Assembly (NCBI GenBank): GCA_039024555.1
Contig: JBCCQQ010000002.1
Coordinates: forward strand, 1 to 64,000
DNA: 64,000 bases
Origin: Cyanobacteria bacterium P01_D01_bin.156
Lineage (GTDB): Bacteria; Cyanobacteriota; Cyanobacteriia; Phormidesmidales; Phormidesmidaceae
Reading direction: 5' to 3'
Position numbers and translations under genes: made by a program
Part shown: positions 51,066 through 56,812 of the stretch, piece by piece
Layout of the letters: each line of letters starts with the position of its first letter
Position numbering within the stretch: the stretch's first letter is position 1
The notes under the pieces: model-generated
Databases searched by the model: none
Seen by the model: only the letters and a program-made list of their open reading frames with translations
What the model was told of the DNA's origin: nothing

Positions 51066-51215
51066 CATCCTCTCCAATGCATACCCCCCTGTTACACTGC
51101 TATAGCAAACTGTGGAATACCCGTAGTTTTGTTGCCCATCACTGTTGAACTTGATATTTTAATCAAGCGCTGATGGGCGTAAACGCTGTACTCTATGTGC
51201 TGGTTTTCTCCTTCC

Positions 51216-52316
51216 ATGGTTAAACGCATCCTTCGCTGGCTGTTGTTCGGCGGTATTCTGTTCTTTCTTGCTAAAACCCTCAAGGACCACTGGCAAGAGG
51301 TGCGAACGCTGCAGATTACCGGGGCGACCTGGGCACTGCTGACCATAGCTCTGGGAATTACCCTCATGGCTCATATTTGGTCTGGCTGGGTGTGGCATTG
51401 GATTTTGCGCACCATTGGTCAATCTCGCAATGGTCAATGGTCTACGGCGGTTTATCTAAAAACCAATATTGCTAAATACTTGCCTGGGAATGTATGGCAC
51501 TTTTATGGTCGGGTGCGGGCTTTGCAAACTACCGGTGCATCGACCGGTGCAGCCATTGTAGGCGTAGTTCTAGAGCCGTTATTGATGGCAGCAGCAGCCC
51601 TATGTCTGGCAGCGATTAGTTTTAGTACCACTGTTGCTAATACCCGTTGGTTGTTGCTGGGCTGTGGTGCTGTTCTGGTGGCCATGTTGGTGGCCATTCA
51701 TCCTCGATTGCTCAACCCCATTCTGAAAAGGCTAGGCACGGCTAAAGCAAAGGCCCAAGGTTTAACGGTTACCAATAGCACCCTTCGACTGCAGACCTAT
51801 CCATTGCGATCGCTCCTGGGAGAGATTGGGTTTGTCGTCCTGCGGGGCCTAGGATTTATGATGACGCTGGTGGCGCTACAGGCCCTAGAACCCAGTCAAT
51901 TTGTGCTGGTGTTAGGAACATTTAGCGTAGCCTGGTTAGCAGGACTCGTAGTACCCGGTGCGCCTGGCGGTGTGGGAGTGTTTGAAGCAGTTGCGATCGC
52001 TCTCCTTGGCAACCAAATTCCCAATGGTCTGTTGATCAGTAGCGTTGCCCTTTACCGTTTAATCAGCACTCTGGCAGAAGCTCTGGGGGCGGGGCTGATT
52101 TGGATAGAAGAACGGATTGCGGGCCTGATGATATCCACAGGCCAAAAAAAGCGCCCGATTTTGTTACCACCACCAAAAGAAAGCATTACAAATTCGGCAT
52201 CTTCTAGCTCAAGCGTCAGCCCTAGTGAACCCACACATCCTTCTTTTGCAAACCAATCTCCTGTACGCGAGGGGGAACCCACAACGCAGTCCTTTGCACC
52301 TCGTAATAAGCAATAA
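51216..52316 (+). CDS. Lysylphosphatidylglycerol-synthase-like flippase-domain membrane protein (UPF0104)
   Basis: KYLPGNVW, PGAPGGVGVFE, LYRL; ATG 51216 assumed. Confidence 0.85.
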   Translation: MVKRILRWLLFGGILFFLAKTLKDHWQEVRTLQITGATWALLTIALGITLMAHIWSGWVWHWILRTIGQSRNGQWSTAVYLKTNIAKYLPGNVWHFYGRVRALQTTGASTGAAIVGVVLEPLLMAAAALCLAAISFSTTVANTRWLLLGCGAVLVAMLVAIHPRLLNPILKRLGTAKAKAQGLTVTNSTLRLQTYPLRSLLGEIGFVVLRGLGFMMTLVALQALEPSQFVLVLGTFSVAWLAGLVVPGAPGGVGVFEAVAIALLGNQIPNGLLISSVALYRLISTLAEALGAGLIWIEERIAGLMISTGQKKRPILLPPPKESITNSASSSSSVSPSEPTHPSFANQSPVREGEPTTQSFAPRNKQ

Positions 52317-52406: not shown

Positions 52407-52733
52407 CTAGATACATTCATCTGCTTGCATCGACCATAGAAGTGTGTTGAGTTGTACAACTTTTTCACTATGGCGCTGACACAAAACATACCGGTAGGCA
52501 TCAGCCAATCGCACTGCCAATTGTTGCTCAACTGTAGTAGCTTCATCACGAGACTGGCATGGCAGTGATAACAATGGTTGCATTGTAGGATTCAAAAGTA
52601 TTGCACTTAACCTTAAAAACAGGTTACTGTCCCAGACCATATAGACTTCAGCCTCCGATATAAGTGTTAAATGGGATTTTGCTAGACAACAAATTACATC
52701 CCGTAACGGATAGAACTTACACTGGGCAGCCAT
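52407..52733 (-). CDS. Hypothetical protein, helical paralogue A (108 aa)
   Basis: About 50% identical to 52920-53222 by manual alignment, which also fixes the start at ATG 52733. Confidence 0.8.
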   Translation of the reverse strand: MAAQCKFYPLRDVICCLAKSHLTLISEAEVYMVWDSNLFLRLSAILLNPTMQPLLSLPCQSRDEATTVEQQLAVRLADAYRYVLCQRHSEKVVQLNTLLWSMQADECI

Positions 52734-52919
52734 GGAGAATTTTTCTGAATTTGAAAACAGGTAGATGCTGAATGGAACGACACCAACAACACCTCTTTCC
52801 AGAGTGCCCACAGTCCAGAAACATGACGCTATGTAAGGACACTGACTACATATCCAAGCCATGTCCCCTAAAGGTCATTTCACCATTTGTAAGCCATAGC
52901 TTTTGATCTTTTTTGAAAC

Positions 52920-53222
52920 TTACAACAGCTCGTTCAATTGCTGTACTTTTTCATTTTCACGCTGCTTGAGGATGTGTCGGTAGGTCTGGACTAATGATTT
53001 AGCCATTTCTACTTCGACAGTAGAAGCCTCTGCACGAGAGCGATACCCGGAGGTTAGTGACGGTTGAAGAGTCGGTTGTAAGTAGGTGGCAGACAATTCA
53101 GTAAACAGTGCTTCATCCCAAGCAATACCTGACTCACAAGCCTCAGGAGTAATCGTTAAGTTGGTCTTTGCGATACAACGAATAACGCTACGCAATGGGT
53201 AATGCAGATACTGAGAATCCAT
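52920..53222 (-). CDS. Hypothetical protein, helical paralogue B (100 aa)
   Basis: YPLR.VI.C.AK..LT, WD..LF..LSA..L.PT.QP, QR..EKV.QLN.LL shared with paralogue A. Confidence 0.8.
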   Translation of the reverse strand: MDSQYLHYPLRSVIRCIAKTNLTITPEACESGIAWDEALFTELSATYLQPTLQPSLTSGYRSRAEASTVEVEMAKSLVQTYRHILKQRENEKVQQLNELL

Positions 53223-53574
53223 AACTAACCAAGCTTCTTTAGAAAAAGGGCACAGTGAATGTAGTGAAGTATACGCCCGTTTTATTCCTTTTATCACTTC
53301 TTTTGTTAAGGTTCCCAGAACTCGCCAGCAAACACCTACGTGGTGATATATCTATCTGCTGTTCACTGATTTCAGATTATGTCATTGATCAACTCGATTA
53401 AAACAGAGAGACTCCAGGAGAGTGCTTTTAATAGCCTTAATTTTGCCTTGGGTAGCATCAGGATATCTTGGCTCCATTGATTCAAAAAGTCTGACCATTT
53501 CAAGGAGTTCATATTAGTCACCATTAGCCCTGTTTCAACCTTAGTAGGGGAGGTAATCAATCTATGAAAATAGT

Positions 53575-53693
53575 CATCAAAAAATAAGCTGGACTCCTTG
53601 AGTATCAATTCATCACAGCTTATTTTTGATGTTGGTAGCTTTTCTAGCTGAGTAACTCTCACAGAAAATCAGACTTGCTCAGCTAGAAGAAGC
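53575..53693 (-). other. Two tandem long stem-loops 3' of the 188-aa gene
   Basis: TTCTAGCTGAG(53642)/CTCAGCTAGAA(53678) and CATCAAAAAATAAGCTG(53575)/CAGCTTATTTTTGATG(53616). Confidence 0.75.
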
Positions 53694-53702
53694 GCGTGTT
53701 AC

Positions 53703-54269
53703 CTAGGCATCGTAGACCTGCATCACAATACCTGCAACATAACCTGCACCAAGCAGAGCAGGTGCACAGGGATGATCAGACATTTCCACATTGGCAACAG
53801 CAGCAATCGCATAGAAACCAGGGGTCATACCAGCTACCTGGGCAGTACCAGCCCATGCGATCTCATACTCGAATTTATCCTTCTCAGTAGTAATGGAACT
53901 AGTAACATCAACTTCAGTTGCGTTACCACCACAACCTTCGATGCAGAAGTTAACTTTCACATCGATACCAAGGCAAAGCAGCAAGCGAGTTAAAGGAGTG
54001 TTGTTGAAACGAACTTTAGTCTTAAGCTTGAAGACTTCTTCCTTCTCAACAATCTGAGCCTTGTTAGCAGGAGCCACTTGGTAAGGTAGAGCAGGTTCTG
54101 CTACGGAAGCAGACACCTGTAGATGATATAGATCAAACTCTACAGGACCTAGGATATTGTGAGAGTATGTTTCCTCAGCACTAATGAGCTTTGTAATATT
54201 CTCACCTACAGTTGTAGGAGCATCAGGAGAGTTGCCGTAGGGTGCGCCACTGGGAACAGGAATAGACAT
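53703..54269 (-). CDS. Hypothetical 188-aa protein, predicted beta-rich, with highly-expressed-type codon usage
   Basis: AGAGGG Shine-Dalgarno; codons dominated by GCT/GTT/ACT/CCT/AAC/TTC; alternating hydrophobic strands. Confidence 0.85.
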   Translation of the reverse strand: MSIPVPSGAPYGNSPDAPTTVGENITKLISAEETYSHNILGPVEFDLYHLQVSASVAEPALPYQVAPANKAQIVEKEEVFKLKTKVRFNNTPLTRLLLCLGIDVKVNFCIEGCGGNATEVDVTSSITTEKDKFEYEIAWAGTAQVAGMTPGFYAIAAVANVEMSDHPCAPALLGAGYVAGIVMQVYDA

Positions 54270-54303
54270 AACGTTTCCCTCTTAAGTTGTTGAAGTTGGG
54301 TAA

Positions 54304-54374
54304 TAGCAGCATGGGTGAAAATCTCAAGAAAGGAGGCTTGTGCTACCTTTGAAATTTCCTTCACTTGCTTGCTA
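54304..54374 (-). other. Long imperfect 5'-UTR hairpin of the 188-aa gene
   Basis: Nested pairings TAGCA/TGCTA, GTGAA/TTCAC, AATTTCAA/TTGAGATT, AAGG/CCTT. Confidence 0.6.
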
Positions 54375-54410
54375 CAAATCCATAATGGCTAACTCATCTT
54401 GATTTGAGAA

Positions 54411-54425
54411 TTCCCCTAAGGGGAT
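54411..54425. promoter_or_regulatory. Palindromic box, candidate LuxR-family binding site
   Basis: TTCCCCTAAGGGGAT; related boxes at 52863, 54661 and 56587. Confidence 0.5.
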
Positions 54426-54857
54426 ACCTTAATAGTTATTCCAAGCATCACAATTAAACCAATTCTAGAGTCAGTGAATATCTTTGAATCTGCCCAATCA
54501 AAGCAGAATTTAATACTATTAGCAAGACAGCTTTAATTATCTACTATTAACAGGATTGGCACATATAGAAAAACAAAAAATCCCAGAAAATCGTTCTAAA
54601 TTCTTGTCATATCCACATTTAAGCTTAATTACAACCAATCACTAATGCGAATTTACTAGGTACCTCTACAGGGTAGTTTTAGTGCAAAAATTGACCCGAT
54701 TTTCTGGAAAACTTGGTTTACATTCTGTAAAAGAAACTGGCATTGCTAAAACTCAAAATCATCAGCTTAGCTACATGCCTTGATGGCATAGCGTGTTTTA
54801 CCGCTCGTCCCATGGGCCACATCAGCCACCCTCTTGCACATCCAACATTAGTGAACA

Positions 54858-55364
54858 ATGAGTGACGCTACCATACACAGTCTGCCAATCATTTGTACAG
54901 CGCATGGACTCAGTGTTGTAACGGCTAACTCAGATCAGACGTCAGGCCATGGGATCTTGCCGCATGACGCTCCCTTCACAGCCCAAGTCGCCTTATCTTT
55001 CGACGCCAGTAACGCTGTTGCCCTATTAGCGTTGAACCCGACTATTCAAATTGATTTCTATATCAAGCCCCTGCAGGCAGGCAGCACGATTGATGTCGGC
55101 AACATTGCCCTGGTAACCAACAGCCAAGAGCGCCTCTATACTCTGCAGCTAGACATAGCCTCACCAGCAGAGTTGAATTTGGATAAAAGCAAGGTATACC
55201 GTTTAGGAGCTTTGGTTCGCATTGGAGCACCAGAAAACCCAGCTCTTCTGTGTGGTGTAGTAGAAGAGCTGATGATCCAACTGTATACATCTGAGAAATT
55301 ATCTCAAGCTTCTAAAAAGGCTCAAAAAAACACATCTAAAAAGCACTTTAAAACTAAAAAATAA
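54858..55364 (+). CDS. Hypothetical 168-aa protein, distant paralogue of 53703-54269, with a Lys-rich tail
   Basis: ALLALNPTIQIDFYI versus RLLLCLGIDVKVNFCI; PALLCGVVEELMIQLY versus PALLGAGYVAGIVMQVY. Confidence 0.8.
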   Translation: MSDATIHSLPIICTAHGLSVVTANSDQTSGHGILPHDAPFTAQVALSFDASNAVALLALNPTIQIDFYIKPLQAGSTIDVGNIALVTNSQERLYTLQLDIASPAELNLDKSKVYRLGALVRIGAPENPALLCGVVEELMIQLYTSEKLSQASKKAQKNTSKKHFKTKK

Positions 55365-55629
55365 CCGCTTTTTTGGCAAAAAGCAGTTTTTCCATCACTT
55401 AGCGTGAAGGTTTATCTATATGATAAACTCTGACATTTCAAGTTCAATTTCGAAGAGAAATCACAATAGATTATCCCTAGAAATTCATCTTTTTTATCAA
55501 TAGTATTGAATTAAAATTATCATTTTATTTCAGCAATTAGGGATCTCCAAACTTATCTAGAAGATCCCAAATACAGATTACAAAATTATGAACTAGATAA
55601 CATTCATGGCCCTATATCTAAGAAAAAGA

Positions 55630-56286
55630 TCAAGAGGTATACCTATTAGAGAAATTTGCAGTGCCTAGAGTAGAGTCTTTCTGCTTAGAGTGGATATTTT
55701 TCATATGTTTTTTAACAGTATGGGGAGTAATCCCCAGTTCCACTGCTATTTGCTTATAGGTCAAATCATTACGATGTAACATCCAGACTTCTTTTTCTCG
55801 CGAAGTTAGTCCGTATTGTTGTGCTTCTTCCATCGCAATATGGACAATAGCCTGCTGACGATCTTCAAGCACTAACAACAGACAAGGAGATTCCATCAAA
55901 TTTGTTTTTAACCATCGAGCACGAATATGTAAAATTACACTATCTTGGGTAACGATATCTAATTCGACCAACCAGTTTTGGTGAGGGAACTGGGCCCGAC
56001 TATGGATTAATGATTGACAAATATGTAGGATCTCCTCAGGAATAATTACAATCTCATCTGCAGGCTCTTGATGAAAATGGTCGAGGATATTACAGGCACT
56101 TCGATTAGAGTAAATCAGGTCTCCTTGTTCAGTAAATACGAGGATTCCATCGAGGAATTCTTGATGAAGCTCGGCTAAGAATTGAGTCTCAAGATGTTTC
56201 CTAGACTCTCCTTGATCAGCAATATTGGCTATTGCAGGAATTGCATAAAGATTTTCTAAGTTGGGTTTGATAGCAGGTAATGTCAT
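55630..56286 (-). CDS. LuxR-family HTH regulator with a PAS-like N-terminal region
   Basis: DGILVF...G.LIYSN; GLTSREKEVW...TYKQIAVELGITPHTVKKHMKNIHSK. Confidence 0.9.
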   Translation of the reverse strand: MTLPAIKPNLENLYAIPAIANIADQGESRKHLETQFLAELHQEFLDGILVFTEQGDLIYSNRSACNILDHFHQEPADEIVIIPEEILHICQSLIHSRAQFPHQNWLVELDIVTQDSVILHIRARWLKTNLMESPCLLLVLEDRQQAIVHIAMEEAQQYGLTSREKEVWMLHRNDLTYKQIAVELGITPHTVKKHMKNIHSKQKDSTLGTANFSNRYTS

Positions 56287-56768
56287 ATATCTAGAGGGAA
56301 CTGATGGCTAATGATTTCTGCTGGAAAGGTCAGACATGGCCGTCGGAGAGTTAAAAACACCGAAATACAGCTAACAATTAAGCTCAACTATTTGATTTCA
56401 GCATATAGGCTAAGAGAGAATATATTTCTCTCTTAGAACTCTCTACTACATTGTCTATGCACCCGCCTATTCAAAGGCTTTAATACACCAAACTCCTGCG
56501 ATCGCAATCTCTCAACATAGAGACTGATTTATCTCTCTGTTAGGTACTTTCACTACAATAGTGCCATCACAATATCTTTTTGCTATCACCCCTCAGGGTA
56601 CTCTTAACGCTCTCTACGCTAGTAATGTCTTTGAAGAGTAGATACAGTGCTGGGAAAAAGGAGCACACAAGTAGACATTTACCGTTTATGTAACCTTCAG
56701 TGAGAAAAAGCACCCTAAGCCCTAAATACTACTGAATACACTACAGGAATAGTCATATCTTTAAAGTC

Positions 56769-56812
56769 AAACGAAAAAACGCCTCGACTACAGTCGAGGC
56801 GTTTTTTCGTTT
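56769..56812. terminator. Bidirectional terminator downstream of rpmA
   Basis: AAACGAAAAAACGCCTCGACT/AGTCGAGGCGTTTTTTCGTTT. Confidence 0.88.

Follow-up and report, generated by a model that had tools for sequence, protein, structure and literature searches.

LuxR/NarL-type activators with a GerE helix-turn-helix (HTH, PF00196), SUKH (SMI1/KNR4) proteins of polymorphic toxin systems, and appendages built from small beta proteins are the described systems closest to a locus of Cyanobacteria bacterium P01_D01_bin.156 that we analyzed in a 64,000-nt window of contig JBCCQQ010000002.1, to which all plain positions refer. The five genes of this locus, which we call C2, C1, A, B, and luxR (product LuxR1), represent an undescribed cassette of filamentous cyanobacteria in shortened form. 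The locus may be the hub of an inducible regulon of biotic interaction (competition, defense, or surface), with the immunoglobulin-like (Ig-like) protein A as a scaffold for cargo-bearing Ig-like paralogues; we favor this reading tentatively and rate it somewhat below an even chance.

LuxR1 resembles LuxR/NarL activators in its HTH domain above the family cut-off, in an 18- to 19-bp palindrome about 43 nt before the inferred start, and in predicted autoregulation. It differs by a PAS-like input part and by the absence of a receiver or known autoinducer domain and of any luxI-type gene in the loci; the box sequence and its targets are undescribed in the literature searched. Protein A shares a seven-stranded Ig-like sandwich with the C-terminal carbohydrate-binding domain of Wzt (6O14, 2R5O, 5HNO), RhoGDI, Spo0M/arrestin, and INTS7, but it is only 10% to 14% identical to them, lacks a fused ABC ATPase, and differs by a helix insertion, a pair of cysteines, and an arm at the N-terminus. 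The Wzt_C profile (PF14524) gave no Pfam match for A or B, and 0 of 30 short members match it. SUKH proteins are described in PMC3113570 as predicted toxin-immunity proteins and versatile scaffolds; SUKH genes are present in relatives' cassettes and deleted in the window. Unlike polymorphic toxin–SUKH systems, the cassette has no adjacent toxin or secretion domain, and its SUKH protein is conserved and sometimes fused to a middle domain and Ig-like tail. The disulfide-linked Ena endospore appendages (10.1101/2020.08.21.260141) and AggA donor-strand pili offer a working analogy, with small beta proteins, an N-terminal arm, Cys cross-links, and minor subunits, but A has no sequence relation to them and no signal peptide, chaperone-usher, or sporulation context. 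The Foldseek row that pairs A with AggA is poor (TM 0.40, root-mean-square deviation [rmsd] 8.8), and AggA does not appear in the VIA top 50. The NTP-dependent conflict systems of multicellular prokaryotes (PMC7159879) likewise occur in filamentous hosts, and genes of their CHAT, caspase, and NACHT types share the box here; the cassette, however, lacks an NTPase core, and the main text of that survey mentions neither SUKH nor immunoglobulin nor helix-hairpin domains.

The full cassette is found at the same rpmA site in two genomes of the genus (G013 and G020) in the order LuxR1, B, A, H, SUKH, SUKH, LuxR2, C, C; a third (G017) has a similar gene set there, and the same order recurs in the named loci L051 and L055, which come from Leptothoe isolates. 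In the window, the minus strand carries C2 (52407..52733; 108 aa), C1 (52920..53222; 100 aa), A (53703..54269; 188 aa), and luxR (55630..56286; 218 aa), and the plus strand carries B (54858..55364; 168 aa). These five open reading frames (ORFs) had been called in the original prediction and are all present, with starts refined from sequence. DNA comparison with locus L032 shows that two deletions removed H, SUKH1, SUKH2, and LuxR2, i.e., four of the nine genes. The H deletion lies between 53563 and 53512 (junction 53513..53563), with flanks aligning to L032 9908–9972 and 11114–11166 and H between these. The second runs from about codon 18 of SUKH1 through the end of LuxR2, upstream of C1, and leaves a SUKH1 stub (53372..53512, minus strand) of ca. 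18 homologous codons followed by unrelated sequence; blastn aligns 53460–53512 with the beginning of the L032 SUKH gene, and a tblastn search with the overlapping 96-aa ORF agrees. That ORF (53372–53662) was rejected as a gene because it reads through hairpins into the stub. Neither H nor any PF09346 match was found in the window's own genome, which is 99% complete.

The proposal of a self-contained module is thus not supported: the locus is what remains of a nine-gene cassette after the loss of four genes, and it forms one node in a broader regulon. Nor is it a recent import: congeners have the same site and flanks, and synonymous distances (dS) of the cassette genes are like those of flanking genes, except that of A, which is lower. 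A prophage, plasmid, or recent genomic island is not supported, as searches of plasmid, phage, and viral-contig collections gave no hits and three congeners share the occupied site. LuxR1 orthologues at this site are 69% to 70% identical. At the rpmA site, other congeners carry just C together with one or two A-family genes that belong to a different clade, and the box before luxR (56585..56602) is the positional homologue of the box preceding the A-family gene there. In an ancestor, the larger cassette thus appears to have replaced an A gene of the other clade.

Homologues of A occur in 32 of 61 related genomes and in 6 of 301 and 6 of 401 genomes of two phylum-wide samples, with Leptothoe species as closest named relatives. 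Co-occurrence of the genes, which had been proposed as a check, was found: among 53 GTDB loci (close kin included), A, H, SUKH, and LuxR stand together in 26 (20 of the 31 with enough flank) and A, B, C, and LuxR in 5, one of which (L069, from a distant lineage) lacks H and SUKH as the window does. In the same 53 loci, B is present in 15 and C in 9, and A is tandemly duplicated in 6. C was found in 28 of 32 A-positive genomes vs 2 of 29 A-negative ones, both of the latter incomplete, and in the phylum-wide sample four of five C-positive genomes also have A or B. H was found in A-positive genomes only (19/19). A metagenome scan with a short A-like protein returned 1 locus only. As an unconfirmed lead, a single Atlas structure row lies beyond cyanobacteria (141 aa, commonest in Actinomycetota, TM 0.60/0.77).

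The model of A (pLDDT 84, 73 sequences) is a complete seven-stranded Ig-like beta-sandwich with one inserted helix. The protein is acidic, lacks a signal peptide, and has a conserved N-terminal ETYSxNILGP arm, which is modeled with low confidence in the monomer (pLDDT 55 to 59). Its Cys99 and Cys168 form a covarying pair: of the 73 sequences, 61 have both residues and 9 have neither (counted in a loose window over related sequences). By a hydropathy proxy, a hydrophobic N-terminal stretch is found in 0 of 58 A and 0 of 15 B proteins. The best fold matches reach Z 8 to 10 with an rmsd of 3 to 4 Å over 110 to 126 residues and comprise the INTS7 C-terminal domain, ester-bond adhesin repeats, Wzt-C, RhoGDI, and Spo0M/arrestin; the fold search rows also include the Ig domain of Pycsar AGS-C. 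PDB sequence searches with profiles of A, short A/B, and C gave nothing below E 0.4, and a viral fold library searched with A gave generic rows only. The proposal that B is a distant paralogue of A was borne out at profile level (hhalign 97%, E 4e-11), though BLAST does not detect it (E 2.7). B also aligns to the C-terminal domain of H (93%) and lacks the N-terminal arm and Cys pair of A. The idea that B is a minor subunit with a basic tail fared less well: the lysine-rich tail of the window's B is present in just 9 of 15 B proteins.

H consists of an HhH (DUF4332-like) part, a middle domain of about 60 aa, and an Ig-like tail, and the same middle domain and tail are found on three long SUKH proteins (E 1e-16 to 7e-13) and in L145 and L146, so that two different cargoes carry what behaves as a plug-in tail. 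Judging from these profile alignments, a single undescribed Ig-like domain recurs in A, in B, and in the tails of H and of the long SUKH proteins. The cassette SUKH gene of relatives is a true PF09346 member (40 to 48 bits), highly conserved rather than diversifying, and its neighbors in the loci are H, which has HhH-type matches only, and LuxR2. The tandem C1 and C2 are paralogues as suggested (51% identical, E 2e-31), C2 being the faster-evolving copy on a longer branch than its sisters. C1 is modeled with five helices (pLDDT 82), and the C fold has no PDB match above Z 6.0 and none in Atlas. As had been noted from the sequence, A, B, C1, and C2 match no known family: no Pfam, NCBIfam, PHROG, or PADLOC family was assigned. 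Several C proteins (L139 to L143, L069, L072, and L080), often unlinked to A, carry a low-complexity insert of 30 to 90 residues between helices 1 and 2. In G002, L145:7345-12140 holds a divergent A-type gene, an H without HhH, a 525-aa SUKH–middle–Ig fusion, a long-insert C, and B in a single orientation.

A also looks like a very abundant protein, as its supposed role of major product implied. By codon bias against highly expressed reference genes, it ranks 21 of 4,849 ORFs, among psbA, phycobiliprotein, and rbcL genes, and of 344 ORFs matched for length and third-position GC, only 2 (one of them A) reach such a score. By this genome's codon table, the A genes of congeners are similarly high, while B, H, SUKH, and LuxR genes are average or low. 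Directly 3′ of the A stop codon lies a stem-loop (53642..53688, minus strand) in which 10 of 19 pairs changed on both sides in the consensus of seven same-genus loci, followed by a second, terminator-like hairpin with A/T-run arms at 53580..53627 that is common to two congeners. Elsewhere in the genome, two related small proteins of 116 and 131 aa (C11:93534 and C72:27472) have codon-bias ranks 3 and 22, and a secreted-looking repeat protein of 170 to 190 aa (C118:6006-6569; also L231) with a box-like site upstream has rank 32.

The claim of a PAS-like/LuxR regulator held for its HTH, which scores 37.2 bits against PF00196 (cut-off 23.5), but the PAS part is weak (PAS_9 14.5 bits, cut-off 27, E 0.043); an autoinducer-binding domain is absent among the 15 Pfam families listed for LuxR1 at E ≤ 1. 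The recognition helix is nearly invariant across cassette LuxRs, and the window's own genome has three unlinked LuxR paralogues. From the regions upstream of A genes (23 non-redundant ones of 29), motif discovery extracted the palindromic box AGTACCC-N4/5-GGGTACT with a log-likelihood of 200 vs about 30 in shuffles. Among A genes, this box precedes 29 of the 30 whose loci contain a LuxR gene (23 of these served for training), 16 of the 28 that have no LuxR linked to them, and 18 of 18 in further A loci; it also precedes 12 of 19 B genes and no C genes, and controls gave 2 (N5) and 5 (N4) of 216. We scanned the window with a matrix trained on 18 non-congener loci and 300 shuffles per region. 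The boxes are at 54410..54428 (N5, before A), 54659..54677 (N5, 180 nt before B), and 56585..56602 (N4, before luxR), and the best site was reached by 0 of 300 shuffles in either box-bearing region. The regions before C1, before C2, and between B and luxR contain no box (79, 113, and 226 of 300 shuffles as good). A shared palindrome had been noted without its sequence; the one found independently here applies to A, B, and luxR but not to the C pair.

A −10-like element lies 22 to 23 nt downstream of the box at A promoters and luxR (predicted hexamers in the window: 54382..54387 for A, from a conserved offset in 39 A promoters, and 56558..56563 for luxR, at the same offset; both on the minus strand), and the box therefore overlaps the −35 region, which is the position of class II activators. 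Its placement is presumably like that of a lux box, and we take its half-sites to be like NarL TACCC. A sigma-70 consensus scan found 9 promoter-like sites vs 11.6 expected, and NtcA, LexA, and HetR boxes were rejected by eye against their consensus sequences, which differ in spacing or orientation. The predicted LuxR–box link is an association in sequence, with the box upstream of A and B genes and near LuxR paralogues elsewhere, and regulation of A, B, and luxR through LuxR and the box is a well-supported prediction.

Beyond the cassette, the N4 box has 12 sites in the window's own genome, 9 of them intergenic (22% expected), compared with 3 sites and 0 intergenic for the reversed control; on the forward strand of four congeners, there are 38 N4 boxes vs 9 controls. 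The N5 box shows no genome-wide excess over permuted matrices, and its best site, before an HtrA-like gene, was discarded as unconserved in five of five congeners. An N4 box lies about 100 nt upstream of a vanadium bromoperoxidase gene in four genomes (own C28:26514-28510 with box locus L214; L197, L220, and L229); the own enzyme matches 5LPC at E 6e-133, is missed by Pfam and NCBIfam, and has N-termini near-identical to those of three congeners. An unclassified family of divergent, Cys-containing proteins of 101 to 105 aa is found behind an N4 box with A-like −10 spacing in all five genomes (own C1:318405-318886, L215; L218, L230, L232, and L236), three near a LuxR paralogue and two beside a hemagglutinin-type gene; its members, of about 102 aa, were considered as relatives of A and rejected, as they are not of the A family. 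In three genomes (L217, L233, and L207), a box heads an operon in which three large unclassified genes (about 490, 445, and 810 aa) precede a small gene and a LuxR paralogue. Boxes elsewhere adjoin LuxR paralogues in three further operon types, and further neighbors comprise CHAT, caspase-TIR, NACHT, TpsA/TpsB two-partner secretion, and hemagglutinin genes. Within 3 kb of a CHAT domain lie 3 of the 12 N4 boxes in the window's genome, vs a background of 2.5%. On the strength of these motif matches, the box marks a predicted genus-wide regulon that includes bromoperoxidase, small proteins, hemagglutinin/two-partner secretion, CHAT/caspase/NACHT genes, and LuxR paralogues. The window's genome has 43 CHAT-domain matches in total, and at L222:2068-3585 a box precedes a 505-aa protein with a partial tyrosinase-like match.

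In the mechanism that we favor, LuxR1 would sit on the palindrome as a dimer and, from a site overlapping −35, switch on the sigma-70-type promoters in front of A and luxR, the latter by positive feedback; it would activate B from further upstream. A would be made in bulk, with the stem-loop either stabilizing its mRNA or stopping transcription so that downstream genes are expressed in smaller amounts. It might then self-associate through the N-terminal arm into an oligomer or fiber stabilized by the Cys pair, which B, H, and the long SUKH proteins could join through their paralogous Ig-like domains, thereby displaying HhH (DNA-binding) and SUKH (protein- or nuclease-binding) modules on the scaffold, with C as a putative helical partner. 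Because A lacks a signal peptide, assembly would be cytoplasmic, and A would act there or after lysis. The window's genome keeps the core of A, B, C, and LuxR1 and has lost the cargo genes H and SUKH. Of all this, the analysis shows the gene order, the deletions, the shared domain, the box with its −10 spacing, the codon bias, the hairpin, and the co-occurrence, whereas we infer binding, expression levels, cellular location, assembly, and function. In its most specific form, an inducible, signal-peptide-free, and disulfide-linked Ig-fold fiber or scaffold with HhH and SUKH minor subunits, made as bulk product of a PAS-LuxR regulon that would turn on bromoperoxidase, hemagglutinin-type adhesins, and caspase-like proteases as well, for a dedicated contact or defense state of filaments in mat and reef cyanobacteria, we consider this model doubtful.

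Several observations weigh against the hub-and-scaffold reading. The Ig-like sandwich of A needs no further strand to be complete, its structural matches are just generic, mostly monomeric Ig folds (best Z 9 to 10), and the likeness between A and the H tail is not direct (hhalign 0.1%) but runs via B only. C is unlinked to A in several genomes and has no box before it in the window, the LuxR family is wider than A (42 vs 32 of 61 genomes), and the two box spacings may point to two regulators. About half of the 36 congener box sites examined (of 56) have unrelated neighbors or lie inside ORFs, the relatedness of the loci makes counts overstate independence, and A of the window has a branch roughly double the length of those of its two sisters (0.30 vs ~0.15), which indicates faster evolution.

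With the same regulation, A could instead be an abundant soluble binding or protective protein, whose RhoGDI- or Wzt-C-like pocket might take up a lipid, a glycan, or a halogenated metabolite, or whose Cys residues might act as an oxidant sink alongside the bromoperoxidase, and B and the H and SUKH tails would then bind the same ligand independently. The complete monomeric fold, the recurring matches to RhoGDI and Wzt carbohydrate-binding domains, the bromoperoxidase behind the same box in four genomes, and the many congeners in which A and C alone suffice all fit such a binder. We nonetheless hold it to be rather unlikely, given that Z scores of 8 to 10 are tied across many unrelated Ig-fold families, Wzt_C and RhoGDI among them, that A-type proteins are sometimes very divergent in otherwise intact cassettes (L145 and L147), as would not be expected of a binder specific for one ligand, and that the conserved but unpacked N-terminal arm is left unexplained. 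An intracellular conflict or immunity system, built in the manner of those known from multicellular prokaryotes and with Ig-like domains that link HhH to SUKH modules as sensors or homotypic adaptors, would accommodate the toxin-immunity role predicted for SUKH proteins, the patchy spread with gain and loss at one site, the Pycsar AGS-C row, and the CHAT, caspase-TIR, and NACHT genes among box targets with the CHAT enrichment given above. No nuclease, deaminase, ATPase, or other effector is found in the cassette at any mapped locus, though, and the conserved SUKH, the absence from mobile-element collections, and the PADLOC searches (0 matches for A, B, C2, and H; weak partial rows for C1, LuxR, and SUKH) also speak against it. 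Codon bias for bulk expression is unusual in such systems, and we judge this possibility to be slimmer still.

That the window's locus is a decaying, non-working remnant might be suspected from the two deletions that took four of nine genes and from the longer branches of A and C2, but every one of its five ORFs is intact, as are its three boxes, its two −10 elements, and its hairpin, and between-species nonsynonymous distances (dN) are well below dS for all five genes. The same reduced set occurs in the distant L069, and A and C without H in at least seven congeners. We therefore regard decay as improbable.

The block is AT-richer as originally noted (GC 40.7% vs 47.1% genome-wide, with 2.3% of 1,502 windows of 4.2 kb equally low). 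The noted gap in HIP1 sites is real, with none between 51993 and 56498, but ordinary: since 322 of 2,410 HIP1 gaps in the genome are at least 4.5 kb long, the missing sites are uninformative as a sign of an island. HIP1 density is low in this genome, at one per 2.6 kb. To the right, a perfect 21-bp inverted repeat 3′ of rpmA (56769..56812) bounds the locus. To the left lies a lysylphosphatidylglycerol-synthase-like membrane gene (51195–52316); this side is rearranged, as genes for a sigma-70 factor and a Clp-type ATPase take its place beyond C in most congeners.

The literature searched, with subscription papers and bioRxiv supplements outside its coverage, holds no description of the cassette, and the family terms are absent from the proteome supplements of PMC6416890. 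The cassette and its Ig-like domain are real and undescribed. The cassette together with its regulon is more interesting than the five window genes, its function less so. It adds an undescribed domain that different cargoes carry as a plug-in tail, a protein of widespread marine and mat cyanobacteria that is a candidate for very high abundance, and a predicted operator sequence that ties A to bromoperoxidase, adhesin, and caspase-like genes, so that the switching of chemical defense and surface interaction in non-model filaments becomes testable. If A polymerizes, the product would represent a new type of bacterial assembly; if it does not, the regulon alone would be a modest but solid new result.

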